Source: Nitrosopumilaceae archaeon (GTDB taxonomy: Archaea > Thermoproteota > Nitrososphaeria > Nitrososphaerales > Nitrosopumilaceae). Taken from it: a stretch of DNA of 64,000 nt. The notes beneath the pieces were generated by a model. It was not told the DNA's origin. It worked only from the letters and a program-made list of their open reading frames with translations, and did no database searches. Of the stretch, positions 16,282-64,000 are shown piece by piece (the stretch's first letter is position 1; each line of letters starts with the position of its first letter). The stretch lies in contig OZ242274.1 of NCBI GenBank assembly GCA_965207375.1, positions 1,408,001 to 1,472,000 on the forward strand. Reading direction: 5' to 3'. The position numbers were made by a program, and so were the translations under genes.

Positions 16282-16731
16282 CTACTTTTGGGATCCTACA
16301 CTTTCTGGATTTGTATCATCAAACCTGAGAATCTTTTTCCCTCCATACATGTTGACATATTCTGAATTAATTATTGTAGCCTTGGCATGTCCTATGTGTG
16401 GATAGCCATTTGGTTCCGGAGGAAATCGTGTGACGATATTTCCATTTATTGCATCCTCTAACTGAGGCAACGGAGTCTTCTGCTTGGGTTTTTCTTTTTC
16501 AACCATATTTGGAAAATCCCTTTGTAATTGCTCTTTTTGTTGTGACATTGTTAAATTATTTACTTCCTCAACTATTGGCGCAATTTGAATTGAAATTTCT
16601 TTAACCCTTGTTCTCAATTCTGGCAATGTGCCTAGGATCTTTGCCAAGATTACCTTGTCTTTGGTCTTACCATCATGCTCTGAGGCATTCTGTAAGGCAA
16701 ACCTTTGTATTTCCTTTTTTATCTCGTCCAA
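16282..16731 (-). pseudogene. gltX: N-terminal fragment of glutamyl-tRNA synthetase
   Basis: [35 protein letters not shown]; truncated at the IS66-like end. Confidence 0.9.
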
Positions 16732-20550: not shown

Positions 20551-21826
20551 CAGTACTTCCGATTATAGATCACAGGTCACTATTTAGACAATATTTTTTG
20601 ACATACAGATCCAAATAACGGAATAATCCTACCCATCTTAACCTTGAGAGAAAAAGATGGGCAAGATATCCCAATAAAATCAGGAACACGAGGGTTTAAA
20701 GTATTTCAATCTGCACTAGGCAGGCTGCCCATTTCGTTTGGAACAGGAAACAACACGAGGTATGGACTCTCAAACGCAGTCAACATGCTACAGGTCATGT
20801 CAGTATACGGCGTGGCTGCCAACAGTGCACACCAATACGCTCCTTCAGGAATAGATATTCCAGGCGGAGACTGGCTTGTACAAAAGATAACCCCAATCGA
20901 TCATGACGACATGATAAAACATGGAGAAAAGATGATACACGATACTGTTGATGTACGCCAAATGAAGCTGGACCGCAGAAACGGCAACAACCAGACGCGC
21001 GTTGCAGCAATAGACAAACACAAGATCCCACACTATGACAAAGACCCTGACATGACAGATATGGTATACTCAAAGCATCATGCAGGAACATACGTCTTTG
21101 AAGCATACATGACTGCCAAGATGGTCTCAGGTGCAAAAGAATTTCATCTTGCAATGGTTCCAGTAACTCGGAACAAGTTTAACCCTGAATTCGTGCGTAA
21201 AACCATACAAAAATGCGATGATTTAGGTGCTGATGTGAACATATACTTGTTGGACCGTGAGTTTTATGCATCTGATGTTATGGATACAATACAGAATCTC
21301 AAAAAACATTTCATAATGCCTGCAGTAAAGAATGCGGGAATCAAAAAGGCAATATTTCAATATGCCCAAGGAAAGCGCGATGCAATATCACAGTATACCT
21401 TTGATAATGGATTTGAATTTAATTTGATCATAGTACCAAATCCCAAAAAACCTGATGCAAAAAATATCTTTGAGAGATATCATGTGTTTGCAACATCATT
21501 GCCGTGTACAGATTCTGATGACATGTTGAAATACATTCCTAAAGCATACAAAACGAGGTGGGGGATTGAGACTGGATATAAACAGGCAAAATCTATACGT
21601 CCATACACCACAAGCAAGAATTCCTCAATGCGGATGTTGATGTTTGTTGTATCTGTAATCCTATCTAACATATGGATAGATTCGCGGATAGAGGTTGCCC
21701 ATCAGACATACAATATTACACTTGTAGCCTTTGTAATGCAGATGGCTCATGCATATTTTGAGTGTCACTCAACTTGGCCGCCCCCCAATAAATCGGCATA
21801 GTCTGGATTTAAAATCGGAAGTACTG
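20551..21826 (+). mobile_element. ISH3-like insertion sequence
   Basis: TIR CAGTACTTCCGATT; TSD AAGTTT (20545-20550, 21827-21832). Confidence 0.9.
20644..21801 (+). CDS. ISH3-family DDE transposase
   Basis: AAIDKH, LLDREFY, YKTRWGIETGY. Confidence 0.9.
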   Translation: MREKDGQDIPIKSGTRGFKVFQSALGRLPISFGTGNNTRYGLSNAVNMLQVMSVYGVAANSAHQYAPSGIDIPGGDWLVQKITPIDHDDMIKHGEKMIHDTVDVRQMKLDRRNGNNQTRVAAIDKHKIPHYDKDPDMTDMVYSKHHAGTYVFEAYMTAKMVSGAKEFHLAMVPVTRNKFNPEFVRKTIQKCDDLGADVNIYLLDREFYASDVMDTIQNLKKHFIMPAVKNAGIKKAIFQYAQGKRDAISQYTFDNGFEFNLIIVPNPKKPDAKNIFERYHVFATSLPCTDSDDMLKYIPKAYKTRWGIETGYKQAKSIRPYTTSKNSSMRMLMFVVSVILSNIWIDSRIEVAHQTYNITLVAFVMQMAHAYFECHSTWPPPNKSA

Positions 21827-25581: not shown

Positions 25582-26147
25582 AAGGGGTAAATTTGTGCAA
25601 ACCTAGTCCCAAATTTGCTAATTTGGGATATGATTGGTTAGATTGTAGGCTTGTTAAAGACAGCACATCATACTGTGCACTTTATATTTTAGGTGACAGG
25701 AAACTAGCAATTAAAAATTTTAAAAAACTAACAGTCAAAAAGTATCAAAAAGATCCTATTCCCTCATGGTTTAGTCGCATGATACAAAATAAACTAGTCA
25801 AAATCAAAAACAATAAGGTATCTGTAACTACAAAGGGTCACATATTGTATTCTGCCTGTGAACTTGACCTTCCGATAAATGCCTTTTTGATTTTGTCCCT
25901 AGTGTATATGAAAGTGCTCACCTTTGGAAAATATTACAAGTCAGGTGTGGATTTTGTAAATTTTTACAAACTGTCTAATTTTAATTATCATTTATTTGAA
26001 TATAATTTTAAAAAACTCTCAAATAAGAAAATCATCGTACCATACGATCCAAAACACAAGCTAAGATGGACAATTGCAGACATGGTTACCATCAAAAAAT
26101 ACCATAAAGTGCTAGTCGGAATCTACACATACATGGTAAACGCATGA
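25578..26147 (+). CDS. Basic hypothetical protein (wHTH-like)
   Basis: QNKLVKI...VSVTTKG wing motif; operonic overlap. Confidence 0.5.
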   Translation: MKGVNLCKPSPKFANLGYDWLDCRLVKDSTSYCALYILGDRKLAIKNFKKLTVKKYQKDPIPSWFSRMIQNKLVKIKNNKVSVTTKGHILYSACELDLPINAFLILSLVYMKVLTFGKYYKSGVDFVNFYKLSNFNYHLFEYNFKKLSNKKIIVPYDPKHKLRWTIADMVTIKKYHKVLVGIYTYMVNA

Positions 26148-26815
26148 TGAACGAATATCTTTCCTTTGCAGTAACTGTCATCATGCTTGCTCCAATGGCA
26201 TGGAGTGATCTCCGTGAACGAACCGTCATGAACGACATTTTGGCAGTATCTGTTTGTATATCTGCATGCTTTTTTGTGTATACCATACTTGTAGAGTGGT
26301 CCCTTGCAGACATGTCAGTTTTAATTGCAATAGTTATGGGAGGTATCATAACTGGAACCATGTTTGTCATGTATCGTCTTGGTCTGATGGGTCTTGCTGA
26401 TGTTGCAGTTTGTGCAGTTATTACACTAATGCTTCCGGTCCTGTATAATTTTCCACTAGCCATTACAATTATAATTTTAGGATATGGTATCGGCATAGGG
26501 TACACTGTCTGTATAAATGCTAAATGCAATATAGCAGACATGTACCACAAAAGACCCTTTGATAGTTCCATAATTTTGTATCATAAAAAGCGCAAGGGGG
26601 AAAAATTCTGTATTCAGGGACATGTCTCCATAGGAAAGGTAGATGATTCTGGAAAAATACTTGCACGTGACGGTACTAGCTTGTTTGTATGTGAGGGGGA
26701 ATCTGGTCAAAGAGTTACTGTTGCCATACCAATGATTTTTATGTTTTTGATAGCAACTGTTGCCTTATTTTGTCTGGTACAGTCCGGTATTATTCTAGGC
26801 GGATTGTTTTTCTAG
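26144..26815 (+). CDS. Prepilin peptidase (A24/PibD-like)
   Basis: Multi-TM; WSDLRER and MGLAD catalytic Asp motifs. Confidence 0.8.
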   Translation: MMNEYLSFAVTVIMLAPMAWSDLRERTVMNDILAVSVCISACFFVYTILVEWSLADMSVLIAIVMGGIITGTMFVMYRLGLMGLADVAVCAVITLMLPVLYNFPLAITIIILGYGIGIGYTVCINAKCNIADMYHKRPFDSSIILYHKKRKGEKFCIQGHVSIGKVDDSGKILARDGTSLFVCEGESGQRVTVAIPMIFMFLIATVALFCLVQSGIILGGLFF

Positions 26816-34256: not shown

Positions 34257-35620
34257 TAGACAGTAGCGCAACCCTGCCTAAAATCCTTCAAAATCATACG
34301 AAATGACCCATATTAGACTAATCCATCAGGATTTTTTACATTACGTGCTTTTTGATCATGATATCACTTGTATGCTTGTGCCTAAACTAGCTGATGGAAC
34401 TAAAATTACTCATGCTCAAAACGATGCAAGATACATCGAACGTGGAAGACAGCTTGCATTGACCAACAAAAGTCTTGATGATCCACAAATACAAGAGGAG
34501 TTACGCAGTATGAACAAGAAAAAAAACGGACATCCGTATGAATATCCTGATTCGTTGTTTGTTGCCCTAGCACTAGTACGTTCAATGTGCGGATTGTCAT
34601 ATCGTGTACTTGAAGGATTAGCAGCAGAATCCCTTGGTAAAGACAACGTTCCACATTTTACAAAAATACGCACACGCATTCTAGCACTAGATACAGACAA
34701 GCTTGGAAAGATGACATTCAAAAAAAATGGTAATAACAAGGTTACAATCAGCATACTACCTGACGGTACAGGCCTAGAGCCGTGTACCCGTGGAGAATTT
34801 ATACGTGCCAAACACAAAGTTAGGCGTGGTTTTATCAGATTTACAACAATAATTGATCACGATACCATGAAGATACTTGCCTATGAGATTACAGATGAGC
34901 GTACCGGAGAAGCAATGGGACTAGAGAATATGATTGAAACCGCACTAGAAAATCTGGGTGTACAGGTACAAAAACAAGATACAGAAAAACTAGATACAAA
35001 ACAGGAGAATGTAAAGAGTGGTACAAAAAAACAAGACACAAAACAGGATAAAGAATATGATTCAACAGATACAATTCAGACTCGCTTGGAAGAAAAGGAC
35101 AAAGACAATAATCCAAATATCAGACTGTTAGGTGATGGACTGTATTCAAAATGCAAGTTCTTTGATATGTGTGATTTATTTGGAATCGAGCTGGTATCAC
35201 CAGTAGCTTCTAACTCTGCTGCAAAGGTACGTGGTAGAAAGGGAGGCAGGGCGCGCAAAAAGGCTGTACTAGAACAGCTTGGAGGAGGAGTGCATGCCAA
35301 TACATTTGCAACATTAACTGATGCACAACGTGCAGAAAATATGAAAAAGTGGAAAAAACAGGTAGGATACGGCAGAAGATGGCTAGTTGAGATAATGTTT
35401 TCAGCATTCAAGCGAATGTTTGGAAGCGCTGTAATGGCAGTAAAGATGGAAAACATAGTTCGGGAGATTTCATTTAAGGTATTTGCATACAATAAAATGC
35501 TAGACATAGCGCAGGAGGCCATGGCTAGAGCATAATGACTGTAAACTTTACAGTACAAGTCAATCAGACTTGGATCAAGTGAGTTAGATTTGGACCAAGT
35601 CGTAGTTGCGCTACTGTCTA
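34257..35620 (+). mobile_element. IS5-family insertion sequence
   Basis: 16-bp TIR TAGACAGTAGCGCAAC; 8-bp TSD GTAGGTTC (34249-34256, 35621-35628). Confidence 0.9.
34303..35535 (+). CDS. IS5-family transposase, paralog of 14616..15806
   Basis: PDGTG, GDGLY, YGRRWLVEIMFSAFKR. Confidence 0.9.
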   Translation: MTHIRLIHQDFLHYVLFDHDITCMLVPKLADGTKITHAQNDARYIERGRQLALTNKSLDDPQIQEELRSMNKKKNGHPYEYPDSLFVALALVRSMCGLSYRVLEGLAAESLGKDNVPHFTKIRTRILALDTDKLGKMTFKKNGNNKVTISILPDGTGLEPCTRGEFIRAKHKVRRGFIRFTTIIDHDTMKILAYEITDERTGEAMGLENMIETALENLGVQVQKQDTEKLDTKQENVKSGTKKQDTKQDKEYDSTDTIQTRLEEKDKDNNPNIRLLGDGLYSKCKFFDMCDLFGIELVSPVASNSAAKVRGRKGGRARKKAVLEQLGGGVHANTFATLTDAQRAENMKKWKKQVGYGRRWLVEIMFSAFKRMFGSAVMAVKMENIVREISFKVFAYNKMLDIAQEAMARA

Positions 35621-36063: not shown

Positions 36064-36135
36064 AGGCCTGTTGTTTAGTAGAAGAACGATTGACTGAAAA
36101 TCAATAGGTCACGGGTTCGAATCCCGTCAGGTCCA
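36064..36135 (+). tRNA. tRNA-Phe(GAA)-like gene with degenerate D loop
   Basis: ATTGA-CTGAAAA-TCAAT anticodon arm, ACGGG-TTCGAAT-CCCGT T arm, GGCCTG/CAGGTC acceptor; D loop lacks GG; AT-rich TATA-like upstream. Confidence 0.7.
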
Positions 36136-36577
36136 CGCCTTACCTAATGTCGTACAAATTCCTTGATCAAGGATTTTCTAAAATAACCAAAAATCGAGTA
36201 AATTTAACATCTAGCCTTAATTTTTTGGTACAAACTCAGGTCGTAAATTTTTCAGCCACAAAATTTTCACATATGTTCAAAAACTACATAGAATCAGAGG
36301 TGACCTGAATATTTGCTTGTTTGCATTGGTACTTGGAGAGTGGAATCTTGTAGAACTTGGATTACTGCCATCATCTAATTTACTTGATCGTGGCACATAA
36401 GATTACGTATATTCCCGCCGTGTACTTAAATAATTGATTAAATCAATATGGATATGGAAAATGAAAAACCAAAAGAAATCAAAAAAGCACCAGAACGACC
36501 GTTTTATGGTAGTCAGGAACAACCCACACGTACCGCTCCAGATGGTTCATCTAGCCAAGGACCCATCAAAGGTAAAC

Positions 36578-43109: not shown

Positions 43110-43646
43110 TTGGCTAAATTTACAAAACTTACGCTCATGACTACAAAACGAAACCAAAAAATCACCATTGATGGTAAGGAATACCTAAAACGAGACGTAT
43201 GTAGATACGTCAAGGATTTCTCTGGAGAGATAGATGATCTCATCCTAACACCATGTGGTACAGGTCAGTCAGCCATAAAAAACTACGACGATGAAGTCGT
43301 GGCAACTGTTGACACAGACTGCATCCGAACTTTACTCGGTGATACCATACCGATTGAAGGTTTGGAGAGTATTGATGACAGACGTCAAAGGAAGGAATTT
43401 ACAAAAACGACACAAGTTGCTACAGGGAATTGGCACTCATGCATAGCAGATGAGAAAGGTAATCTACCTGATTGTGACGTGTGTCAATCATATATTCCAG
43501 AAAGCACATGGATAAGCCTACATAACATGTTGGCCGAATCTCTGGAAGATTCTATGATTGTTACCTTGCGCGACGAGTATGTCAAAGGACTAGATGATAG
43601 TCTACGATTCATTATAGAGTCCGAAGCTGACCGACGAGGATTGTAA
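43110..43646 (+). CDS. Hypothetical protein (likely start 43138); N-terminus homologous to 48646..49905
   Basis: KITIDGKEY...VC versus KINVDGKQY...VC. Confidence 0.7.
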   Translation: MAKFTKLTLMTTKRNQKITIDGKEYLKRDVCRYVKDFSGEIDDLILTPCGTGQSAIKNYDDEVVATVDTDCIRTLLGDTIPIEGLESIDDRRQRKEFTKTTQVATGNWHSCIADEKGNLPDCDVCQSYIPESTWISLHNMLAESLEDSMIVTLRDEYVKGLDDSLRFIIESEADRRGL

Positions 43647-46469: not shown

Positions 46470-47606
46470 GTGTCCAAACAAAAAACCAAACAGAGCCGTG
46501 AACTATTAAACAATCCACGATTATATCAAGATGCCGCATCTGGTGCCAAAAACATGCTTGCATGTACTACTTTGTCAGTCAAGGGCAATACGATATATGG
46601 AGTTGATGATCTCAGTACCGGAATGTTGAGGGCTACCATTATGGATTCCTCTGTAGGAGGATGTGCAAATGCGGTAAAACAAAAAAACAGCAATACGCCA
46701 TCAGACAGATGGTATGCATCTGCAATCAAGGGGATATCAGAGGAAACAGTACAGGACGTTTTCCAATTACAGATAGCAAGACAGGTTAAAATTCTCAAAA
46801 AAATGGGAAAGATTCCAAAGAAGGGGCTTACAGTTGCAATGGACCTACACCTCATATGCCGTTATGACAGGACACATGGGGAGGAGTTGACCCGTTCCAA
46901 ATACAAAAACGGCACGACATACTTTGAGCGTTACATGACGGTTCACTGTGTGGATGATACAATGAGAGTCGTTCTAGCTGCAATACATCTCAAAATGCTT
47001 GATTCCGTGCCTAAATCGGTGAATTTTCTGCTCAAAACACTGTCGGATTTGGGGGTAAAAGTTCGTCTGGCATTATGTGATCGTGAGTTTTTCTCAGTGG
47101 ATACAATGCAAATGCTGATTCAAAACGACGTATCCTTTTTGATACCTTGCAGAAATACACCAAATGTAAAATCTGCACTAGACGAGTATAGTCGTAAAAA
47201 ACGTGATGTAACATCAGAGTGCACCCTACAAAACGACTGTCATTCTGTACCGTATACAATGATAATAGAAAGAAGAAAAGGGTCAAAGGATACTGATGTT
47301 GCCGAGGAAAAATACATTGGCTTTGCAACTAACTGTAATACTGTAGACGTTACAGAATATGCAAGTAGGTGGGGGATAGAATCAGGATACGGCAAGATAG
47401 AGGAATGCAGGGCCAAGACACGAATCAAGGATAATGTATCAAGAATGCTGTGTTTTTATTATTCACTGATACTGTACAATGAGTGGATAATTATCAGGGC
47501 TATTCTTTGTGACGATACAGCAAGTCAGAGTATTATGACCATGCTAGTTTTCAAAGTACAAATGGATTTTGAGTTGATGCGTCAGTTCAAGCCGCCGCCA
47601 GGGTAG
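46470..47606 (+). CDS. ISH3-family transposase
   Basis: AMDLH, CDREFF, YASRWGIESGY. Confidence 0.9.
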   Translation: MSKQKTKQSRELLNNPRLYQDAASGAKNMLACTTLSVKGNTIYGVDDLSTGMLRATIMDSSVGGCANAVKQKNSNTPSDRWYASAIKGISEETVQDVFQLQIARQVKILKKMGKIPKKGLTVAMDLHLICRYDRTHGEELTRSKYKNGTTYFERYMTVHCVDDTMRVVLAAIHLKMLDSVPKSVNFLLKTLSDLGVKVRLALCDREFFSVDTMQMLIQNDVSFLIPCRNTPNVKSALDEYSRKKRDVTSECTLQNDCHSVPYTMIIERRKGSKDTDVAEEKYIGFATNCNTVDVTEYASRWGIESGYGKIEECRAKTRIKDNVSRMLCFYYSLILYNEWIIIRAILCDDTASQSIMTMLVFKVQMDFELMRQFKPPPG

Positions 47607-49905: not shown

Positions 49906-50267
49906 GCGCCCAAAAGGTAGCATCGATTTTAGATGCCCTTGTACTTGCCGGAAACGTTGAAACATCACAGCAATTTTTCAAATGCTGTGGTCCCAACTGG
50001 CAAAAGGTTTACAGTCTTTTGTCCCCGGAGGCACAAAAATCACTCAATCCAGATGTATCACATCAAATAAAGATAGACCCAAAAATTGCAGTAAAGGTGT
50101 TCAATGAACTAGCATCTGCACAGCAATATGATACTATCATCATGATGTGCAATTCTAGGATTGGAAACATTGGACGTATCATGAACTTTTGTTCACCTGA
50201 TGCTGTTCGTGTAATCAGCCGTGTCAGACAGACATGGCAAAAAAATGTACAGATTACCTGTACATAG
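49899..50267 (+). CDS. Hypothetical protein
   Basis: 122 aa, overlapping previous stop. Confidence 0.6.
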   Translation: MLSAQKVASILDALVLAGNVETSQQFFKCCGPNWQKVYSLLSPEAQKSLNPDVSHQIKIDPKIAVKVFNELASAQQYDTIIMMCNSRIGNIGRIMNFCSPDAVRVISRVRQTWQKNVQITCT

Positions 50268-50273
50268 GGAAAA

Positions 50274-50396
50274 TCCCACTGATGAGTTTGCCATAGCGAC
50301 ACCGCATGAAGCAAACGCTGGAGTATTCCAGTTGACTGACTCCATCCCGCAGATACGGGGGTTAGTCGAAACATCCTAGTACCAGGATGTCTGGGA
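50274..50396 (+). ncRNA. Type I hammerhead ribozyme with multibranched stem II
   Basis: TCCCA-CTGATGA-G...C-GAAA-CATCCT-agtacc-AGGATG-TC-TGGGA; predicted cut after C50391. Confidence 0.8.
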
Positions 50397-50511
50397 AAAA
50401 GAAACACAAATCCTTCCATCCCAGACCTGATGATACCTATACCATCTAATGGTATCTGTAATATCAGGTCAATGAGGGATTTACACAACACAAACAACGG
50501 AGGTTGATATA

Positions 50512-50763
50512 ATGAGTTATACAATCACAAAATACCAAGGAAAATTTGAAACAGCAGAAAACATACCAAAGACAGGCAGACTAGTTACTGCAGAATCTTT
50601 GTTCAAAGAAAAGTCCGCACTCAGAAATGTTGCAGCAGTATTCATACAGCAACAAGAAACAGTATATCTTGTCTCACTACGTGAGATGGTACCAGAAGAC
50701 TCGAAAGTCATCGTAGATGATCAACAAAACATTTGTGCCATACCAGCAGTTGCCGGGGGGTAA
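50512..50763 (+). CDS. Small protein with ubiquitin/SAMP-like C-terminus
   Basis: 83 aa ending IPAVAGG; GGAGG upstream. Confidence 0.65.
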   Translation: MSYTITKYQGKFETAENIPKTGRLVTAESLFKEKSALRNVAAVFIQQQETVYLVSLREMVPEDSKVIVDDQQNICAIPAVAGG

Positions 50764-50813
50764 AACCCCTTGGAAACTCGCAGAGTATCCAATACTGATT
50801 CAAAAGGCAGACA

Positions 50814-50948
50814 ATGCTTTCAGCAACCGGCGCAATAACACGCATCGATTCTGGACGATTTTCTGTAGGTTCGGGAGTAATAGTTGACATCCATGGGTGC
50901 AACTGTCCCGGATACACAAAATGTAGAATCTGCTCACACTTGTTGTGA
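50814..50948 (+). CDS. Tiny SWIM-type Zn-finger peptide
   Basis: Manual translation ...GCNCPGYTKCRICSHLL. Confidence 0.4.
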   Translation: MLSATGAITRIDSGRFSVGSGVIVDIHGCNCPGYTKCRICSHLL

Positions 50949-51002
50949 GAAATCTCTTGACACAATACGACACCAACATAATCTAGGAGGAACAACAAGA
51001 AA

Positions 51003-51209
51003 ATGTCCAAAAAAGAACTAGAAAAAATTGTAGAGTTGTACCGCAACTATAACATCGAAAAGATGCACAAACAAAAAATCATAAAGAGTTACACAAATAC
51101 TATCATGGCCATCCTTGAGGTGTGCTCAGAAGAGACCATATCCAAAATCAATGACTGTCTTGAGCAGGAAGAAAAAATACAACCATCACCAATTGGTATT
51201 GTATCATGA
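51003..51209 (+). CDS. Hypothetical protein
   Basis: 68 aa; AGGAGG upstream. Confidence 0.55.
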   Translation: MSKKELEKIVELYRNYNIEKMHKQKIIKSYTNTIMAILEVCSEETISKINDCLEQEEKIQPSPIGIVS

Positions 51210-51781
51210 GTGTAGTATCAACATACAGAAAAGACAATCAAATTTTGGAAATATTTGTAGATGAAGATCCTACAAGTCCAAGAGAATGGGATAATCTAGG
51301 TACAATTATCGCTTATCATCCAGACTATATCCTTGGAGATAAACAAATGGATCTACAGACTGCACAGAATGAATGTAAAAAACATATCAAAACTGCATAT
51401 GTTGCATTGCCATTATACATGCTAGAACATAGCGGTATATGGTTGTCTACTGAAACATTTGTTTGTGACCTCCAGGGCTGGGATACTAGTGCTGTCGGCA
51501 TGATATACTGTACAAAATCAGAGGTAAAGAAAATGCTGCAAGTGGACACCCTAAAATCATCAGACAAAAAAAGAGTAGAACAAATCCTAAAAGAGGAAGT
51601 CGAGGAGTGTGGAGAATATCTAAACGGTGATGTATATGGATACTCTCTAAGTACGGTATCTAAATGCAACCAAGGAATGGAACATCTACATCTTGTCGAC
51701 TCTTGTGGTGGATACTATGGTCAAGAGGGCATAGACTCTATCCTTGAACAAAACGGCGCACAAGATTGGGAGAAGATATAA
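51206..51781 (+). CDS. Mobile-element hypothetical protein
   Basis: DPTSPREWDNLG, LPLYMLEHSG, DSCGGYYG resemble phage/ICE hypotheticals. Confidence 0.7.
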   Translation: MSVVSTYRKDNQILEIFVDEDPTSPREWDNLGTIIAYHPDYILGDKQMDLQTAQNECKKHIKTAYVALPLYMLEHSGIWLSTETFVCDLQGWDTSAVGMIYCTKSEVKKMLQVDTLKSSDKKRVEQILKEEVEECGEYLNGDVYGYSLSTVSKCNQGMEHLHLVDSCGGYYGQEGIDSILEQNGAQDWEKI

Positions 51782-51962
51782 TCATGAGCACCGAATCTCG
51801 GCTCCTTTCACATTCCAAAAAGGAATTGGTAAATCTGCTCATCATGGCAAGTGCCAGGATTTTTACACTACAAAATGAAGTGAATGGGTACCAAACCAAT
51901 TGTAACTGCAAACCAAACACCGGTGACAGATTTGCAGACATTGATAGGGCGTGGAATAAACC

Positions 51963-52175
51963 ATGATTGACCAATATACAATGTATGTAGATCCAAACTA
52001 TTCGTATCTTAAAGTACCTAGAAAGGAACTAATCAAGATGGATGTACTTTCAAAAACCAGCAGTAGGTCATTCAGACGCGGGGCGTGGGTTCTACTAAGA
52101 GAGGGTGCTGACATGAACAGATTCATGAAGCAAAAAGGTCAGGTAGAAATCATAAAAGAGTTCACACTAGTGTGA
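51963..52175 (+). CDS. Hypothetical protein
   Basis: 70 aa in a packed operon. Confidence 0.55.
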   Translation: MIDQYTMYVDPNYSYLKVPRKELIKMDVLSKTSSRSFRRGAWVLLREGADMNRFMKQKGQVEIIKEFTLV

Positions 52176-52312
52176 GGGGGTAAAACCATGGAACAACAAA
52201 TTAAAGAGAAATGTGTATCATGTGGGGATATAGCAACAATCAATATGTTTGGGAGTCACCTGTGTGACACATGTGTTGATTTTGTCAAAATTACCAAAAA
52301 ACCTACAGAAAC

Positions 52313-52615
52313 ATGAATCAACAAACTAGACTGGAAAAACTTGCAAAGTGTCTTGATACTATATTGACAACACCAAAAATCAATGGTACAGTAGACGAGT
52401 TTTACGGATATGAAGAGACACATTCTGGACTCTGGTTAAGTGCTGATGACGGCAACAAAATAGATGACATGTCAGCATTTGATTATCATCTGATGGACTC
52501 TGACGAAAAACAATACGTAATGGGTGTACATAAAAAAATACACGAAATACTTTGTCAACAAAAAGCACATACAGAATATCATGATCCGGCAACGATTATG
52601 ATATATCTGGACTAG
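52313..52615 (+). CDS. Hypothetical protein, paralog of 52817..53296
   Basis: FDY...GVHKK...EYHDPAT. Confidence 0.65.
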   Translation: MNQQTRLEKLAKCLDTILTTPKINGTVDEFYGYEETHSGLWLSADDGNKIDDMSAFDYHLMDSDEKQYVMGVHKKIHEILCQQKAHTEYHDPATIMIYLD

Positions 52616-52623
52616 GTAAAACC

Positions 52624-52866
52624 ATGAAAAACGAACCTACACAAAACACTCAATATGTCAACATGCCAAAGCCACACTCGCTACTAGTATTATCTTGGGA
52701 AGATATTGTATCACAAGCAGATGACATGGACATGAAAATCACAAGAGAGCAATGTATTGAGGTGTTTAACAAAATTATATCATCTAATATGGACTCTATA
52801 ATGGATTCCTTTTGGCATGATATCAGATTTTGGTTGGACACCATACATGACGAAAACAAATTATAA
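52624..52866 (+). CDS. Hypothetical protein
   Basis: 80 aa acidic. Confidence 0.55.
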   Translation: MKNEPTQNTQYVNMPKPHSLLVLSWEDIVSQADDMDMKITREQCIEVFNKIISSNMDSIMDSFWHDIRFWLDTIHDENKL

Positions 52867-53296
52867 AATCACGGAGTTGATGAAATTGAACGGAAAATCA
52901 AAATCCAAACTGGTTGAACCAGAAAGGAATTTAGCAAAACAACGATTGGAAAATCTGAAACAGGATCTAGAAGAGTTTCTAGAGGACCCACAAATTGGCA
53001 TGACCATAGATGAGTGGAGCGGCAGAGCCGAAACATATTATGGTATTGTAATGTCAGGTGAGGGAGGCAATCGGGTTAATGGCATTCCTGGCTTTGACTA
53101 TTATGAGGAATGTGATTATCTGGCAGCAGAGGCTGTAACAGAATTTGGCGGTTCTACACCAGAGACAACATATGACTTTGGAGTCCACAAAAAGCTCAAA
53201 GAGTTTCTTCAAAAAAGAGGAGCAAGTGCAGAATGGTATGATGCAGGGACTGTTCATGTATACTTTGAAGAACCCCGTCAAGCACCAAAAAGATGA
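52817..53296 (+). CDS. Hypothetical protein
   Basis: FDYY...GVHKK...EWYDAGT. Confidence 0.65.
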   Translation: MISDFGWTPYMTKTNYKITELMKLNGKSKSKLVEPERNLAKQRLENLKQDLEEFLEDPQIGMTIDEWSGRAETYYGIVMSGEGGNRVNGIPGFDYYEECDYLAAEAVTEFGGSTPETTYDFGVHKKLKEFLQKRGASAEWYDAGTVHVYFEEPRQAPKR

Positions 53297-53388
53297 ATTG
53301 TAAAACATTCGTAGATAATCTACGATACAATATGTCATGTGAAACATTACTGATATCGGTAGACAATACAAAAAGGAGGTACGATATA

Positions 53389-53649
53389 ATGAACCAAGAA
53401 ATACAAGTGATTAAACCAAAGGTAACATTTGATTTTGATGTACCAGAATCTTACAAAACGGTAAAGGCCTTTACTTTACTGTCTGAAAAAGAATTGCAGA
53501 CATTTAGAGAAAAGGGTGCTGCTCTGATAATATCAGTAGATGGTAAATTCATACCGGTACTGTTACACTCAGATGTACCAACACAAGCAACAGCAGTTCG
53601 TGACACACAAGGAAACCTGTGGGGTATTCCTGCAGTAGCAGGTGGTTAA
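53389..53649 (+). CDS. Second small protein with ubiquitin/SAMP-like C-terminus
   Basis: AGGAGGT then ATG 53389; 86 aa ending IPAVAGG. Confidence 0.65.
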   Translation: MNQEIQVIKPKVTFDFDVPESYKTVKAFTLLSEKELQTFREKGAALIISVDGKFIPVLLHSDVPTQATAVRDTQGNLWGIPAVAGG

Positions 53650-53650
53650 A

Positions 53651-54265
53651 ATGGGATACACCCACTATTATCGCGTTTCAGCAGAGTTTGATGCAGACAA
53701 ATTTTTCAACGTAGCATCTGATTTTAAGAAAATGATAACACCACTCAAACATCTAGGTATATCACTAGGTGACGGTCATGGTGAAAATCATCCTATAATC
53801 ACGCCAAAGGAAATCTGCTTTAACGGCTTGAAAAACTGTGGTCATCAGAAACGACATATTGTGCTGCCATGGCCAGGTGAAAATGCAACAGGAGTTGCTA
53901 CACATGGCACAGATACCAAACTGGTAATAGGAAAAAATACATCATGGTTTGCAGGCCCTCAAATTGAAACTAGGGTATGTAACGGTGATTGCTCCTATGA
54001 GACGTTTTCTCTACAACAGAAATTTGAAAAAATGTACGATGAACAGAGCCCAGAAGCATCCGGTGGTCTATTCTTTGATTTCTGCAAAACAGCCTATAGA
54101 CCATATGACTTGGCAGTAAATACCTGTCTGGTTATAGCACAACATCATTTGGGTCCTGCCATTGAGATATCATCTGATGGAGACATGAATCATTGGGAGG
54201 AATCTATGCAACTTTGTAACCACTTTCTAGGGTTTGGTGCGGACTTTACATTGGGTGGCTCATAA
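53651..54265 (+). CDS. Mobile-element hypothetical protein
   Basis: MGYTHYY...FCKTAYRPYD. Confidence 0.7.
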   Translation: MGYTHYYRVSAEFDADKFFNVASDFKKMITPLKHLGISLGDGHGENHPIITPKEICFNGLKNCGHQKRHIVLPWPGENATGVATHGTDTKLVIGKNTSWFAGPQIETRVCNGDCSYETFSLQQKFEKMYDEQSPEASGGLFFDFCKTAYRPYDLAVNTCLVIAQHHLGPAIEISSDGDMNHWEESMQLCNHFLGFGADFTLGGS

Positions 54266-54753
54266 TGCCAAATTGGTGTTTTAGCAATATTACAATTTCA
54301 GGCACAAAGCAAAGCATCGATGCAATAGCTGCTATCAATCTTGATTTTGAAAAGATTCTTCCTACTCCAAAAGAACTGCTAAAATATAGCAGACACACTA
54401 TAGATGCAGAAATAGAAAAACACAACATTGCAAAATACGGGTTTGTTGACTGGTATGAATGGCGATTACATCACTGGGGTACAAAGTGGTCAGCAGACGT
54501 TCAAGGAGTTAGTAGAGAAGGTGACAAAATCATTCACATCAATATCGTTACCCCCTGGGGGTTACCATATGCAATGTTTAAAAAAATCACAAAAGACTAT
54601 GCCGATGTTACCCTAGAGGTAACTGATTGTGAAGAAGAATCAGGAGCGTTTGTAGGCAATTGCACCTTTAAACGGGGACGGTGTACAATAAACAACATAC
54701 ACGAACCCACAAAGAAGGAACTACGAGAACGTGGTATGTTGGATGAAGAATAA
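54265..54753 (+). CDS. YubB/DUF1281-like protein
   Basis: MPNWC.., WYEWRLHHWGTKW, TPWGLP. Confidence 0.8.
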   Translation: MPNWCFSNITISGTKQSIDAIAAINLDFEKILPTPKELLKYSRHTIDAEIEKHNIAKYGFVDWYEWRLHHWGTKWSADVQGVSREGDKIIHINIVTPWGLPYAMFKKITKDYADVTLEVTDCEEESGAFVGNCTFKRGRCTINNIHEPTKKELRERGMLDEE

Positions 54754-55897: not shown

Positions 55898-56560
55898 ATG
55901 AATCCTAACACGAAAATACTAGAGGAAAGAGAGGAGCTGCTGATAATTGATGACGGCAATGGTATAACCACCATTCCAAAATCTGATTATTACCTACTGC
56001 GAATCAAATACTATAACGGCAATAGAATATTTTACGACTGGGGCACAGATGATGCAACAGTAAAAGAAACATACAATGATGGAATATTCAACTGCTGGCT
56101 TGAAGGCAGACAGGTTCAGATAGCAGATGCAAGTGGTGTATCTAGTGCCATTTTAAATCAGAATGTCAAATCATACAAACAACTCTTTGAGAAATGGTTT
56201 GAGGTGACAGCCCAAGAGGCAGTCATAGACATGCTACTTGAAAAACACATCACCCGTGTAGCCAAGACCAAAGCCGGATACGAGATAGACGGAGTATTTA
56301 TGGTAAACAAACATGGTGTGTCACATTGTATAGAAAACGAAAAGTGGAGACACTTGTGTCTTGTTGCAGTAAGCACACCTTCCATGAGTATAGTTGTCCG
56401 AAATCTGGGTCGCGTCAAAATAAACCCGATAACGTCAACCATAATGGCCAAGATAAACTTTCTGTTAAATCCAAACATGAAAGATAGAGTGTTTACCAGC
56501 CAGCTTACAGAACAATGCAAAAGACATCTCAAACATACGTATCAGGAGGTAAAACAATGA
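55898..56560 (+). CDS. Hypothetical protein
   Basis: 220 aa. Confidence 0.65.
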   Translation: MNPNTKILEEREELLIIDDGNGITTIPKSDYYLLRIKYYNGNRIFYDWGTDDATVKETYNDGIFNCWLEGRQVQIADASGVSSAILNQNVKSYKQLFEKWFEVTAQEAVIDMLLEKHITRVAKTKAGYEIDGVFMVNKHGVSHCIENEKWRHLCLVAVSTPSMSIVVRNLGRVKINPITSTIMAKINFLLNPNMKDRVFTSQLTEQCKRHLKHTYQEVKQ

Positions 56561-57394: not shown

Positions 57395-57916
57395 ATGACC
57401 ATAACAACTATAGCACAAGCAAAAGCAAATCTAAAAGGAAGCATAGAGGCAACCGTAATACAAGAGACTCAGATCAAAGAGGGTCAAACAAACGGTAAAT
57501 CGTGGAAAAACAAACGCTACACATTACAGGATGATACCGATACGGTACAAATCACGTTATGGGGAAATGACGTTGACCTGTTAAAAATGAATTACAGATA
57601 CAAACTGACAGGCGGTTGGTGGAAGGAGTTTAGCGGTACAGTACAGTTAGATGCAGGCAAATATCTTAAAATCCAACAGATAGGTGCACCTGCAAATGAA
57701 GCCGTACAGAATATACCAGATATAAAAAACATATTTGCTGATTACTTTGAACCCAAAGTCAAGGGTATAATTGAGGCACAAACAGAAAATCTATACGCCA
57801 TACATTATGCCGTACTAGACAAACTAAAACAGTATGAGCAAGCTCCGGACCCACAACTAGTGCAATTGTTTACCCGAATTATTTACGGTAATCTTGAAGC
57901 TGCAAGACGAAAATAG
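57395..57916 (+). CDS. Single-stranded DNA-binding protein (RPA/SSB-type OB fold)
   Basis: LQDDTDTVQITLWG...WKEFSGTVQL. Confidence 0.8.
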   Translation: MTITTIAQAKANLKGSIEATVIQETQIKEGQTNGKSWKNKRYTLQDDTDTVQITLWGNDVDLLKMNYRYKLTGGWWKEFSGTVQLDAGKYLKIQQIGAPANEAVQNIPDIKNIFADYFEPKVKGIIEAQTENLYAIHYAVLDKLKQYEQAPDPQLVQLFTRIIYGNLEAARRK

Positions 57917-57937: not shown

Positions 57938-58204
57938 ATGAAAAATACAGTAATGAAATTTGTCCATGTAAAATGTATGGACTGCCCGTATGATGACTAT
58001 ATCTGCATAGCACAACCAGGACATTTGGCAGTAGGCCAGATTATACATCTTGGAGAAAAATGCTACTGCGGTTCATATCGAGTACGGGTAATAGGACATG
58101 ATGGTTTAAAGGCAGTAGAACACAACTATGCCAAATGTGGACTGCCATTTGACCGTGAAGAATTTTTAGATAGCATAAAGTCACAGATGCTTGAAAACCA
58201 ATGA
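57938..58204 (+). CDS. Cys-rich small protein
   Basis: CMDC, CYCG; AGGAGG upstream. Confidence 0.55.
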   Translation: MKNTVMKFVHVKCMDCPYDDYICIAQPGHLAVGQIIHLGEKCYCGSYRVRVIGHDGLKAVEHNYAKCGLPFDREEFLDSIKSQMLENQ

Positions 58205-58815
58205 GTACAAGACGTATAGCAAGAAACATTGCAATAAGTGTGGTAATCATGGTCTGCTTTGTTATACTAGCACCTATAATCAGCACCCATGTCACACCTA
58301 CAGTATATGAACTTGTAGAAACAGGCATAAAAGAAATAGACAATACCGGCAGGAACATGACACCAGATGGAACAACACAGATATGGTATAACAGAGCTGA
58401 TGCAACTGAAATATCTGAATCAGTCTCTTCTACAAATCCTGACAAACCTAAATTTGGTAAAAGTACGGCAGGCAGTATAGGGCGTATTGTAGATGGTGAC
58501 ACACTAGATATCAACGGTCAAAGAATACGACTTGCACTAGTTAACACACCTGAACGTGGAGAAGCCGGATATGAAGAGGCAAAAATATACCTCAACGCAA
58601 AGTGTCCGGTTGGAAGCACGGCAATTTATGACCCAGATGATACACAAAAGCCGTCTTATGGCCGAATAGTTGCAAAGGTATGGTGTGTTCATTCAACTAG
58701 TGAAATATCTGTAAATGAGATGCTTGTATTATCCGGACATGCACAAATATTAGATTCATTTTGCAAACAAAGTGAATTTGGTAGAGAATCTTGGGCCCGC
58801 AGCAGCGGTTGCTAG
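58201..58815 (+). CDS. Thermonuclease (SNase) family, membrane-anchored
   Basis: IVDGDTL, IRLALVNTPE, YGRIVA, VNEMLVLSGHA. Confidence 0.9.
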   Translation: MSTRRIARNIAISVVIMVCFVILAPIISTHVTPTVYELVETGIKEIDNTGRNMTPDGTTQIWYNRADATEISESVSSTNPDKPKFGKSTAGSIGRIVDGDTLDINGQRIRLALVNTPERGEAGYEEAKIYLNAKCPVGSTAIYDPDDTQKPSYGRIVAKVWCVHSTSEISVNEMLVLSGHAQILDSFCKQSEFGRESWARSSGC

Positions 58816-59211: not shown

Positions 59212-60042
59212 ATGGCACACGAACTAGAAAAATCAAAATCAGCCAACGTAAACGAACAGCTGAAAAAAATAGTAGATGCATTCTCAACTGAGAAATTCCC
59301 AGAGGTCTTATCCACTACATACATCAAATCTATGGGCAAGCCAATTGAAAACTGGAGTTTTGGAAACAAGATGATTGCAATGTTTGAAGGTACTACAGAT
59401 GCTAGAACCTACAATCAATGGCACAAAGTAGGACGACATCCCAAAAAGGGTTCAAAGGCGTTTTACATTCTTGCACCAAATACGTACAGAAAAAAGGAGA
59501 TCAATGCAGAAACAGGTGCAGAAGATACTGTGACTGTAATGAAAGGGTTCAGGGGCATGCCAGTATTTAGATTCGAAGATACAGAAGGTGCGAGTCTTAA
59601 GGTATCAAAGGAGCCAAAATTGCCGCCCTTAATGGAGGTGGCAAAACACTTTGGTGCAGATGTAAGATTTGAGGCAAAAACTGACGGTGCCTATGGCTAT
59701 TTTGCACCGCGTACAGACAAGCCTCTGATTGTACTGTGTAGTGAAGACCCTACAATATTTTTCCACGAATTGACCCATCTGGTACACCATGTGTGCATAG
59801 AAAAACTAAAACCCGGACAGGACCAAGAACAAGAGACAGTAGCACAACTTTCTGCCTGTGTTCTAGGAGCAATGTACGGTATAGACAATATGGCATTTAG
59901 CTGGAACTATATTGCAAACTATGCAAAAACCAACAAACCCGAAGCCGTAGGTAGAGTATGTCTTAAGGTGCTATCTAAGGTACAAAAAATCCTAAAGATA
60001 ATTCTCGAATTTGAAGAAAAGTCAAAGGAGGCGATGTCATGA
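59212..60042 (+). CDS. ardC: ArdC-like ssDNA-binding anti-restriction protein
   Basis: WSFGN, TYNQWHKVGRHPKKGSKA, metallopeptidase FHELTH, ETVAQ. Confidence 0.8.
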   Translation: MAHELEKSKSANVNEQLKKIVDAFSTEKFPEVLSTTYIKSMGKPIENWSFGNKMIAMFEGTTDARTYNQWHKVGRHPKKGSKAFYILAPNTYRKKEINAETGAEDTVTVMKGFRGMPVFRFEDTEGASLKVSKEPKLPPLMEVAKHFGADVRFEAKTDGAYGYFAPRTDKPLIVLCSEDPTIFFHELTHLVHHVCIEKLKPGQDQEQETVAQLSACVLGAMYGIDNMAFSWNYIANYAKTNKPEAVGRVCLKVLSKVQKILKIILEFEEKSKEAMS

Positions 60043-62296: not shown

Positions 62297-62707
62297 ATGA
62301 GCAAACTAGAAACTGACATTGAGGATCTCAGAACACAGGTCCTAACCATTGGAAAAACAATAGAAAAAGGTACAACACACAAACTCGAAAGGCCGTTTAT
62401 TGATAGTATCATATGTACCCTGCAATACTTTGGAGCAGATGATGCACAACTGAAAATGGCATCATTTGATCTGCACTTTGCAAAATACAAGATATACGAC
62501 TGGCTTGCAATGTGCTGTAACGGCCGAATGGGTGATGACCCTGCAGTACAGCTTGTCATATACAATATGGCAAAACTGTACATTACACAAAAAAATGTAG
62601 GAGGTTTTGCATGGTGGCTCCGTGGTCACGACCTAGACGTTGAGGCACCTGCAAGATGTCAAGACTGTATAGAATCATACAAAAACTGGAAGGAGGAGAT
62701 ACAATGA
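62297..62707 (+). CDS. Hypothetical protein
   Basis: 136 aa; AGGAGGT upstream. Confidence 0.65.
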   Translation: MSKLETDIEDLRTQVLTIGKTIEKGTTHKLERPFIDSIICTLQYFGADDAQLKMASFDLHFAKYKIYDWLAMCCNGRMGDDPAVQLVIYNMAKLYITQKNVGGFAWWLRGHDLDVEAPARCQDCIESYKNWKEEIQ

Positions 62708-64000
62708 GTGTAAAAATATCAAAACCCGTAATTAGAGAAGAAAAGGCATGCGAAACAGGCCTTGATGTATCATATGCAGAAAAGCTAAACCAGGCAGTGG
62801 GAACAGACGGACTTATCCCTGTACAACTCGAACAAGACGTCATTATCAGCAGGATTTCACATGACCTGTATGCCAATCCACAGTCAGGTGTAAGGGAATT
62901 ACTTGCAAATGAAATCAGGGCATGTCAGGAGACTGCATCAGAACATGACGCAAAACCACGTATCGAGGTATCTATAAACCATCAAAATCGAGAGTTTGTC
63001 ATACACGGTATAGATTCCAAGGGTATCGAGCAAGAAAGATTCCTAGAAGTTCTAGCAGTCCTTGGACGCAGTGACAACTTTGACCGTAGCAAGCCCGGAC
63101 AATTTGGCATGGGATTTGCCTCATATACCTGTCTGTCTGATATTGTTTTTATCGAGACATTTGCTAGAAACGGCGACAAGTACAGCGTCATGGGAAAGGG
63201 TGGCATGGGATTTCAAATCCTAGACAAGCCAGAGATGACACATTACGGAACAAAACTCCGCATGACTTTGAACAAAAAGGTCGACATTGATAAAATAACA
63301 AAAACCATAGAGGCATGTGCAACGTTACACGGTATACCTACAACACTAAACGTGACAGAAACATCTGGAATCACAAGATGTGTTGTTATACAACAAAGGA
63401 AACTAGAGGACTTTGTAAATACCCAAACTACCACAAACTCTGAGAGAAAACATCGTACACATCATGCAGTAACACTTGAAAACGAAAACATCGCAGCCTG
63501 TATGCGGTTTTCAAAGCATGGTCATTATGGTACACCAAAGATACATACATTTCTAGCAGGTATGCCAATAGAATTTACCTACACTGGTAAACATGGTGGC
63601 ATCGTTGAATTGGCAATCAACGTCAAAAGAGAGGATATTTTTACACCAACACCAGACAGAGAAAGATTCACAGAAGAATCATCAAGCCTGATAAGAAAAG
63701 AGTTAGATGGATTAGTAGATGCAAAAATCTCTGAAATAAAGGTAAAAGGGATTTCAGAGTATATTGAAAATCCAGAGACCATATTGATTGATGGTGCAGG
63801 TGGAAACATTGAGATTGATGAACAAACACTAGACATCTCAAGACTAGTCAATCGGAGCCGTCATACAAATGAGCGTGATAACTGGATACGTCTAAACGAC
63901 ATAAAAGACATACAAAAGTGCCTTGTCACAAAGTCACTTACAGCAAAAAAGATAGCAGCAGTCAGAAACTATGATTCTGAAATTAACGTAGTTAGAGCAG
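62704..64000 (+). CDS. GHKL (Hsp90/rIIA-like) ATPase, runs off window
   Basis: Manual translation LYANPQSGVRELLANE, DSKGI, GQFGMGFAS. Confidence 0.8.
   Translation, partial: MSVKISKPVIREEKACETGLDVSYAEKLNQAVGTDGLIPVQLEQDVIISRISHDLYANPQSGVRELLANEIRACQETASEHDAKPRIEVSINHQNREFVIHGIDSKGIEQERFLEVLAVLGRSDNFDRSKPGQFGMGFASYTCLSDIVFIETFARNGDKYSVMGKGGMGFQILDKPEMTHYGTKLRMTLNKKVDIDKITKTIEACATLHGIPTTLNVTETSGITRCVVIQQRKLEDFVNTQTTTNSERKHRTHHAVTLENENIAACMRFSKHGHYGTPKIHTFLAGMPIEFTYTGKHGGIVELAINVKREDIFTPTPDRERFTEESSSLIRKELDGLVDAKISEIKVKGISEYIENPETILIDGAGGNIEIDEQTLDISRLVNRSRHTNERDNWIRLNDIKDIQKCLVTKSLTAKKIAAVRNYDSEINVVRA

Follow-up and report, generated by a model that had tools for sequence, protein, structure and literature searches.

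A protein family with a ubiquitin-like GG tail and without enzymes of its own on conjugative-type elements of ammonia-oxidising archaea

Two small genes, here named UblA and UblB, were found in a 64,000-nt stretch of the chromosome of a Nitrosopumilaceae archaeon (C1:1408001-1472000; contig OZ242274.1 of assembly GCA_965207375.1), hereafter referred to as the window. Their products end in the ubiquitin-like (Ubl) tail IPAVAGG and belong to a previously unannotated and undescribed family of ~85 residues, which is GG-tailed and Ubl-like, brings no enzymes of its own and is borne by integrative-conjugative elements (ICEs) of archaea. Within the data searched, mobile elements of the conjugative type in ammonia-oxidising archaea (Nitrososphaerales-type) are its only carriers. 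It is tentatively proposed, at a probability a little short of even, that UblA and UblB are element-encoded modifiers or carriers, which would use the E1 enzyme of the host by means of this Ubl-type tail.

UblA (P0001; 50512..50763, + strand) and UblB (P0002; 53389..53649, + strand) were recognised as open reading frames (ORFs) of 83 and 86 aa, whose translations terminate in ...NICAIPAVAGG-TAA, written DDQQNICAIPAVAGG, and ...NLWGIPAVAGG-TAA, written DTQGNLWGIPAVAGG, respectively; an earlier note on this DNA, made from the sequence alone, had claimed both ORFs and their ends, and they are present as described. Direct reading of the sequence revealed a Shine-Dalgarno-like GGAGGT 7 nt 5′ of the UblA ATG (50499..50504, + strand) and another 8 nt 5′ of the UblB ATG (53375..53380, + strand), and the layout GGAGGT-N(1-2)-GATATAATG was common to both starts, in which the A/T-rich spacers of 7-8 nt end in GATATA. 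The longest UblB frame begins at ATG 53293 and comprises 118 aa; the start was taken as 53389 because of the GGAGGT upstream of it, which is identical to that found before the UblA ATG. According to the earlier note, the two proteins shared little besides their ends. The shared IPAVAGG end was confirmed, but the low similarity had been overstated, since BLASTP found 33% identity across 70 residues (E 3e-9) and the proteins are therefore paralogues. Their common IPAVAGG-stop is not a chance resemblance. A six-frame scan of the four contigs of the assembly (4.3 Mb) for P[PA]V[ASTG]GG-stop or AVAGG-stop returned UblA, UblB and a single further frame of 35 codons, and UblA and UblB alone in the genome carry a MoaD-type GG end on a free-standing ORF. 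They were also the only two family copies revealed by a protein search of the host genome. Word-based searches gave one close homologue for each protein, both on a single 120-kb contig, and P0004, a homologue 91% identical to UblA, was found on another contig.

The family was delimited by an exhaustive HMMER profile search of 1.84 billion representatives, in which 52 matches were obtained at E<=1e-3; UblA itself matched the family profile at E 4.5e-27. Five of the matches were discarded as repeat-protein artefacts, whose scores were summed over many short stretches (P0007 and P0047 upon inspection; P0034, P0042 and P0044 judged by their 5-9 short matched stretches alone), leaving 47 true representatives. 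The few record names seen were 'hypothetical protein [Thaumarchaeota archaeon]' and similar, or Nitros... records. GG was observed at the aligned end in 45 of the 47 representatives, the exceptions being P0031, which has AG, and P0032, whose tail is lost; the conservation of GG in homologues, on which the proposal of the earlier note hinged, was thus upheld. The protein stops exactly at GG in 30/47 representatives, 2-6 extra residues follow it in 6/47 (SI, SSI, SL, ISQ, QASRHV), and in the remaining 11/47 the family domain is the N-terminal part of a fusion to 32-526 further residues. GG is retained in 15 extended forms, where it is followed by S in 10 cases and by A in 3, which matches the GG|S or GG|A junctions between Ubl and E1 in the host, described below. 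The exact-GG, short-tailed and fused forms correspond to the architecture spectrum of Ubl proteins.

The tail stood out from the rest of the protein as well. Over its last eight positions, counted in 56 sequences, the consensus residues occur as G 52, [ILFV] 56, P 44, A 49, V/I 54, x, G 55 and G 56, compared with a mean column identity of 22% for the whole family alignment, which makes the GG tail the most constrained, selected part of the protein. In the fused members P0014, P0016, P0018, P0020 and P0021, the N-domains are 89-99% identical and the C-terminal parts diverge sharply after GG, so that several pairs among them align over the first 75-90 residues only. No Pfam family was found in the C-terminal extensions of fused members; these forms are known from protein records alone, and some of them may be gene-calling or assembly artefacts.

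A single ThiF match was found in the host genome (C1:267794-268492, E 2e-72), ~1.19 Mb from UblA/UblB, and it corresponds to a ThiS-like-E1 fusion of 440 aa (L001:1192-2514 = G000:C1:267485-268807) with PF02597 at its N-terminus (35.1 bits). The Ubl domain of this fusion ends in YILPAVAGG followed by S (GDQIYILPAVAGG|SQDL) and passes without a break into the E1 domain. In 4/5 related genomes, Ubl and E1 were likewise found fused, the tail reading YILPAVAGG|S/A, and in the fifth a separate Ubl ORF ends in LLPAVGGG-stop. Thus, the element tails carry the heptapeptide of the cognate Ubl of the host E1, and only in UblA/UblB does it occur in the cell as a free C-terminus. Since the Ubl of the host E1 ends in LPAVAGG, the hijacking or jamming of this enzyme becomes a concrete hypothesis. 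A six-frame genome scan with PF02597 at E<=1 revealed three loci, none of them UblA or UblB. A second ThiS-like domain of the genome (G000:C1:949081-949323) ends in ...IIPIIHGG|SANS, continues in frame for at least ~100 further residues and is probably the Ubl-Cgi121 fusion reported for Thaumarchaeota. Ubl-E1-TBP and Ubl-Cgi121 fusions were described for this group by Makarova & Koonin 2010 (PMC2948915), and, as reported there, neither beta-grasp Ubl domain of the host stands free, each being embedded in a fusion protein. The host also harbors two Prok-JAB (JAMM) genes with intact HSHP...S..D motifs. Complex prediction for the host E1 (residues 95-440) with UblB gave a score of 0.53 versus 0.45 for the control and was counted neither way. 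Directly upstream of the ThiS-like-E1 fusion lies a gene for a threonine-synthase-like pyridoxal-phosphate enzyme (L001:196-1191).

In a six-frame profile search, 46 of 201 genomes of the host order were matched, and the matches fell into two classes. The first comprised the small GG-ended ORFs, of which 12 intact copies, all GG-stop, were found in 8/201 genomes (two in the host genome G000, three in G142, two in G184 and one each in G031, G094, G019, G152 and G143). The second was a chromosomal multi-pass membrane protein of ~250 aa without a Pfam family, present in 23/40, 10/11 and 5/9 genomes of three families of the order; this class was checked at 12 loci. Two further matches are frames in G038 (78 aa) and G191:C26 (97 aa). 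The G038 match (L107; G038:C1:546895-547011) is weak (E 3.3e-6), and its frame contains one in-frame TAG. Outside the host order, none of 257 genomes of other families of the phylum was matched at E<=1e-5, and a degenerate DNA pattern for GIPAVAGG-stop, applied to 185,579 species genomes, gave 28 loci, all due to chance (best family-profile E 0.97). One family member (L093) was found in IMG/VR, among 29 loci retrieved with the GIPAVAGG pattern without the stop. Metagenome scans returned none among 596 pattern matches for relatives of P0014 and one locus (L108) for P0039.

Judged by its gene set, the region around UblA and UblB is ICE-like. According to PMC6563490, thaumarchaeal ICEs carry VirB4/VirD4 ATPases, a VirB6/TadC-like protein, a prepilin peptidase and a TFIIB homologue. 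In the window, Pfam searches of 60 ORFs revealed a T2SSF/TadC-like membrane protein (4664-6604, + strand; T2SSF E 7.2e-19), a HerA/TrwB/AAA_10-type ATPase (6579-9455, + strand; DUF87, AAA_10 and TrwB_AAD_bind, E 7e-8 to 5e-7), a type IV prepilin peptidase (A24)-like protein (26144..26815, + strand; PF01478 E 2.6e-6) and, with a score under the cut-off of the model, a TFIIB Zn ribbon (E 6.8e-4), besides an actin-like protein and PIN and Fic domains. A DNA methylase, a D5-type primase-helicase, PolB, an XPD-like helicase and PriL are encoded 3′ of the window. The related locus L059 encodes a TraG P-loop/AAA_10 ATPase, a HerA/TrwB ATPase and a pilin-like protein of the type IV secretion system (T4SS), and in L059 and its kin the GG-tail module is flanked by such T4SS-type ATPases and pilin-like protein. 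No integrase was found near the region, the only Phage_integrase match in the genome being at C1:307448; the element may be decayed or use another recombinase. The placement of the two genes in an 'early region', made in the earlier note, found no support if a phage is meant, as no phage hallmark gene was found in the window and its gene set matches that of a thaumarchaeal ICE on an AmoA-positive chromosome. Phage origin was also rejected upon comparison with 50,697 phage records, in which the stretch 50000-54300 (by megablast) and the two proteins (by tblastn) gave nothing or E>=0.2 (an Enterococcus phage protein), and the PHROG matches of UblA and UblB were insignificant.

UblA and UblB lie in a co-directional array (47.9-64 kb) with genes for a DUF1281_C (Api92-like) protein (54265-54753), an OB-fold protein (57395-57916), both recognised by Pfam, an SNase-like nuclease (58201..58815, + strand; Pfam SNase E 2.7e-5, phrog_452 endonuclease E 4.6e-14) and an ArdC-N-like anti-restriction-type protein (59212..60042, + strand; PF08401 E 9.8e-6, phrog_7245 E 9.9e-14). 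Homologues of the ArdC-like protein adjoin family members in L061 and L063. This array is reminiscent of the leading or establishment regions of bacterial plasmids, here in an archaeal setting.

A survey of the gene neighbourhood at 12 loci (the window, L057-L065, L093 and L108), several of which are kin and which represent about six lineages, revealed two constant companions. The gene of fam1, a family of ~230 aa (220 aa in the window; 55898..56560, + strand), and that of fam2, an Hsp90-like GHKL ATPase of 700-900 aa (62656..64000, + strand; a 702-aa ORF that extends 764 nt beyond the window), were each found within ~10 kb of the GG-tailed gene in 10/12 loci. The loci that miss them are contigs of 2.7-7.4 kb, and in L065, L061, L057, L093 and L108 the GG-tailed gene is directly adjacent to these partners. 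The fam2 profile matched the Hsp83 N-domain in the PDB (3h80_A, E 9.3e-7) and PRK14083 'HSP90 family protein' in NCBIfam (E 2.4e-9, far below the cut-off of that model), and the Bergerat motif was invariant in an alignment of nine fam2 sequences (E81/N85, D120/G123, G148/G151/G153, T199). No recognisable family was found for fam1 in Pfam or NCBIfam, and its alignment (A8) showed no catalytic motif, with one invariant Cys and no invariant His. The GHKL ATPase (in the window, L093, L108, L057-L062 and L065) has a large uncharacterised C-terminal part and is always paired with fam1, and the two genes seem to form by themselves a conserved module of thaumarchaeal ICEs. In L057 (G184:C1:1337000-1356999), a pair of identical GG-tailed genes and two GHKL paralogues are preceded on their upstream side by at least four tandem repeats of a gene pair (330 aa and ~170 aa); the tandem array and the duplicate copies indicate recent local amplification in the L057 element.

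Directly 3′ of UblB lies the gene of a third family, fam9 (53642..54265, + strand; ~205 aa), whose ATG at 53651 begins 1 nt past the UblB stop. A homologue of fam9 was found in the related element L057, and no match to it in Pfam, PHROG, NCBIfam or PADLOC. Between UblA and UblB are encoded proteins of 100 aa (52313-52615) and 159 aa (52817-53296), which have no family match and are paralogous, sharing ...G[VF]HKK[IL].E[IF]L.Q..., and this stretch therefore holds a duplicated gene set. The motif GGTAAAACC was observed at three gene ends or junctions (50757-50775, 52176-52190 and 52612-52626), twice followed directly by ATG and once as GGGG-TAAAA-CCCC spanning the UblA stop; a conserved stop/ribosome-binding-site junction or a small hairpin may account for it.

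From the genes, the family, its tail and architectures, the genomic context and the host inventory, we infer how E1 binding, adenylation, JAMM processing and conjugation to a target could follow one another. The protein would consist of a compact alpha/beta core and a flexible tail, G-[IL]-P-A-V-x-G-G, the latter serving as a Ubl-type activation handle. Upon entry or induction of the element, the GG-tailed protein would be bound by the sole ThiF/MoeB-type E1 of the host, which would adenylate its terminal glycine, and the activated protein could then be attached to targets in a sampylation-like manner or be thiocarboxylated as a carrier. In extended or fused members, a JAMM protease of the host would beforehand remove what follows GG. 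For the protein that tags or is tagged, the likeliest element-side clients or effectors would be the Hsp90-like GHKL ATPase and fam1.

Several results weigh against the use of UblA and UblB as E1-dependent modifiers or carriers, beginning with the enzymes. ThiF, JAB and UBC gave no Pfam match in the 60 window ORFs, 29 flanking ORFs and 24 ORFs of the L059 locus, and profiles derived from the host E1 and JAMM proteins, run against 3023 ORFs over 268 kb of this and related elements, gave nothing at E<=0.5 (a single row at E 0.75). The observation that the pair stood 'without visible E1/JAB partners' is therefore correct for the element, as judged by Pfam and by the host-derived profiles over those 268 kb. 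What travels with the family is the GHKL ATPase and fam1, rather than E1, E2 or JAB. In PADLOC, nothing was found for UblA and UblB, and the 29 neighbours gave weak unrelated rows only. Moreover, the host tail is LPAVAGG throughout and the element tails vary at position -3, with no co-variation between them.

The identity of the domain itself is no more favourable to an E1-dependent modifier. The earlier note had assigned the two proteins a SAMP/MoaD signature, of which the MoaD/ThiS-type tail was retained and the family membership was not: no Pfam family matched UblA or UblB at E<=10, PF02597 included, and the profile-profile similarity to the host Ubl (hhalign, probability 42%) was confined to the tail, covering the last 18 columns only (IVRD.sGqLvGIPAVaGG versus lkdgd.vyilpavagg). 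The family profile likewise had no match among PDB sequences at E<=10. The beta-grasp fold, for which the note had suggested AlphaFold and Foldseek, received a mixed answer, in which the model was confident and its structural Ubl matches were weak. The AlphaFold2 (AF2) model of UblB, built from a 38-sequence alignment (a run with two sequences was poor, with a predicted local distance difference test score, pLDDT, of 44.2, and was discarded), reached a pLDDT of 86.7 and a predicted template modelling score of 0.72. It presents a loose N-terminus, a short strand, a helix at 27-42 in two segments, five strands and a lower-confidence tail, an order of secondary structures that also fits an Sm/SH3-like barrel. 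Foldseek returned nothing at E<=1e-3 in PDB or BFVD, and in the fold comparison the Ubl matches did not exceed Z 3.0, all under the background stated for the tool. The top VIA row was the BubA Ubl structure 9eav, and the enrichment of GG-tailed beta-grasp proteins among the few structural rows obtained with the model is suggestive.

The membrane protein of the second match class adds to these objections. It was examined at 12 loci (L045-L056, among them L047:928-1710), and its C-terminal domain shares homology with the GG-tailed family, the C-terminal 60 residues matching the family core at E 1e-12 to 4e-9. At these 12 loci the ends were variable and never PAVxGG (GIPKLLDGF, GIPKHPRAF, GISRF and others), so that the GG tail looks like an add-on to a domain of other function. 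As for the origin of UblA and UblB, the data fit either a very divergent beta-grasp or another binding domain that gained a Ubl tail. A more specific scenario, which is judged unlikely, is that a non-beta-grasp fold derived from the C-terminal domain of the Nitrososphaerales membrane protein acquired the E1-recognition tail of the host Ubl and would form, with the GHKL ATPase and fam1, a new tagging or E1-subverting module acting in transfer, either by an E1-independent route or as the first tail-mimic hijacker of an archaeal Ubl pathway to be found on a mobile element.

The constant company of the GHKL ATPase and fam1, often adjacent and missed only on short contigs, is what would be expected if the GG-tailed protein were a non-covalent subunit or adaptor of one or both, its tail being a docking peptide lodged in a pocket of the partner, as the MoaD tail in MoaE, without any E1 chemistry. 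The lack of E1 and JAB on the elements agrees with this explanation, and the GG-less core on the membrane protein suggests a binding domain. However, nothing obliges a docking peptide to stand at the very end of a protein. The 30/47 members that stop at GG are left unexplained, together with the short pro-tails, the GG|S/A fusions and the identity with the cognate tail of the host E1, and the GHKL gene of the window is 12 kb away from UblA and 9 kb from UblB; such an adaptor is thus doubtful, though of appreciable weight. Another use of the same trio would be a self-contained, E1-independent tagging, in which the GHKL ATPase activates the C-terminal glycine or loads the protein and fam1 acts as a ligase or peptidase. 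The tight conservation of the trio, the invariant Bergerat positions in the nine fam2 sequences and the lack of E1 on the elements would suit it, but neither a protease nor a ligase motif is seen in fam1, the agreement of the tail with the substrate of the host E1 would be a coincidence, and we know of no GHKL enzyme that activates a carboxylate, which together render this alternative very unlikely.

A tail mimic could also act without ever being conjugated, as a decoy or inhibitor that occupies the adenylation site of the host E1 and blocks sulfur-transfer or Ubl pathways during establishment. A heptapeptide identical to that of the host, placed on a core not detectably ThiS/MoaD, is compatible with this idea, as is the co-directional array, whose ArdC-like, SNase-like, OB-fold and DUF1281_C genes call to mind the leading regions of bacterial plasmids, rich in anti-defence genes (PMC11541004). 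This explanation is distinctly unlikely, given that a decoy has no need for pro-forms or cargo fusions, that the substrate of the host E1 is fused in cis and should out-compete a free mimic, that no evidence links this E1 to defence, and that a leading region is not established in archaeal ICEs, in which relaxases were not detected according to PMC6563490. That the two ORFs are non-functional, as chance frames or decayed remnants, might be supposed from a region full of insertion sequence (IS) elements, with four DDE transposase ORFs in the window and more in its flanks; yet the 47 representatives with conserved length and ends, the 12 intact copies in 8/201 genomes, the Shine-Dalgarno-like sites at both ORFs and the confident AF2 model reduce this chance to practically nil. 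Double-glycine leaders, such as those of NHLP/Nif11 or bacteriocins, end in ...AGG at their cleavage site, and the variable C-terminal extensions found right after GG in 11/47 members recall an N-terminal domain that directs the processing or export of what follows. It is highly improbable that the family serves this purpose, since leaders lacking any core would have to be assumed for the 30/47 members with nothing after GG, extensions of 32-526 aa are not peptide-sized, and no Pfam match to a C39-peptidase or ABC transporter was found in the scanned neighbourhoods.

The genome that hosts the element is a four-contig assembly with a G+C content of 0.37-0.38, in which a full-length archaeal small-subunit rRNA gene and an archaeal AmoA (E 9e-115) were found and McrA was not, so that the host is an ammonia-oxidising archaeon. 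With 4.30 Mb at a completeness of 99.95%, versus ~1.1-2.0 Mb for the listed genomes of the same family, it is an unusually large one. Its contigs C2-C4 (0.43-0.93 Mb) have a G+C content of 0.367-0.369 versus 0.382 for C1, and might be extra replicons or mobile DNA. The DDE/IS66 transposases of the window are located at 14616-15806 (- strand), 20644-21801, 34303-35535 and 46470-47606, and those outside it at L097 4031-5068 and 5889-6998 (- strand) and L099 6751-8121. Gene fragments were observed as well, namely a 45-residue piece of a GlnRS/GluRS catalytic domain (16282-16731, - strand) and an F420-hydrogenase-beta-like piece (43110-43646); the region is heavily rearranged. A tRNA-Phe is encoded at 36064-36136.

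Archaeal Ubl tagging has been recognised in a handful of chromosomal SAMP/Urm1-type systems, and in bacteria, operons that encode Ubl proteins were lately found to serve as weapons in the conflict between phages and their hosts. Borne, within the data searched, solely by conjugative elements of ammonia-oxidising archaea, devoid of an E1 and tailed like the Ubl that is linked to the single E1 of the host, the family would be the first indication of archaeal mobile elements exploiting or sabotaging the Ubl/sulfur-carrier pathway of the host; if its fold is not a beta-grasp, it would represent convergent evolution of a Ubl-type tail. Moreover, a defined trio of GG-tailed protein, Hsp90-like ATPase and fam1 is placed in elements whose transfer mechanism is still unsolved. 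No account of Ubl-like proteins carried by conjugative elements of archaea emerged from a literature search; among the papers listed there, a preprint on Asgard viruses contains the terms 'E1-like' and 'ubiquitin-like'.

Among known systems, sacsin pairs a Ubl domain with Hsp90-like ATPase domains, and the association of a Ubl-like module with an Hsp90-like GHKL ATPase recalls it by analogy only, given that the genes are separate here, are carried by an archaeal mobile element and match the NCBIfam 'sacsin N-terminal ATP-binding-like' model at a non-significant E 0.063. The bacterial Ubl conflict operons (Bil, Bub and CBASS with Cap2/Cap3) encode their own E1, E2 and JAB beside the Ubl, whereas none of these was found beside UblA and UblB, whose host is an archaeon. 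The element itself resembles the thaumarchaeal ICEs of Krupovic et al. 2019 (PMC6563490) in its VirB4/VirD4 ATPases, TadC-like protein, prepilin peptidase, TFIIB-like Zn ribbon and D5-like primase-helicase with PolB, and differs from them in that no integrase was found near the UblA/UblB region. In that source, the main text contains the word 'ubiquitin' 0 times, and HSP90, ubiquitin, ThiS, MoaD, GHKL and HATPase are absent from its supplements as accessible; neither the GG-tailed family nor its partners, the GHKL ATPase and fam1, are thus reported in those parts. ThiS, MoaD and SAMP proteins (PF02597) differ from UblA and UblB, which have no PF02597 match, align with the profile of the host Ubl in the tail only, share their core with a membrane protein and lie on a mobile element, away from the genes of E1, MoaE, ThiG, TtuA and JAMM. 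The likeness to that family resides in the size of ~85 aa, in the flexible terminal [ILF]-P-[PA]-V-x-G-G and in the coexistence of mature, short-tailed and fused forms, and it extends to the Ubl-E1-TBP fusion of Thaumarchaeota; the tail of the E1-fused ThiS-like domain of the host is identical to that of the element proteins.

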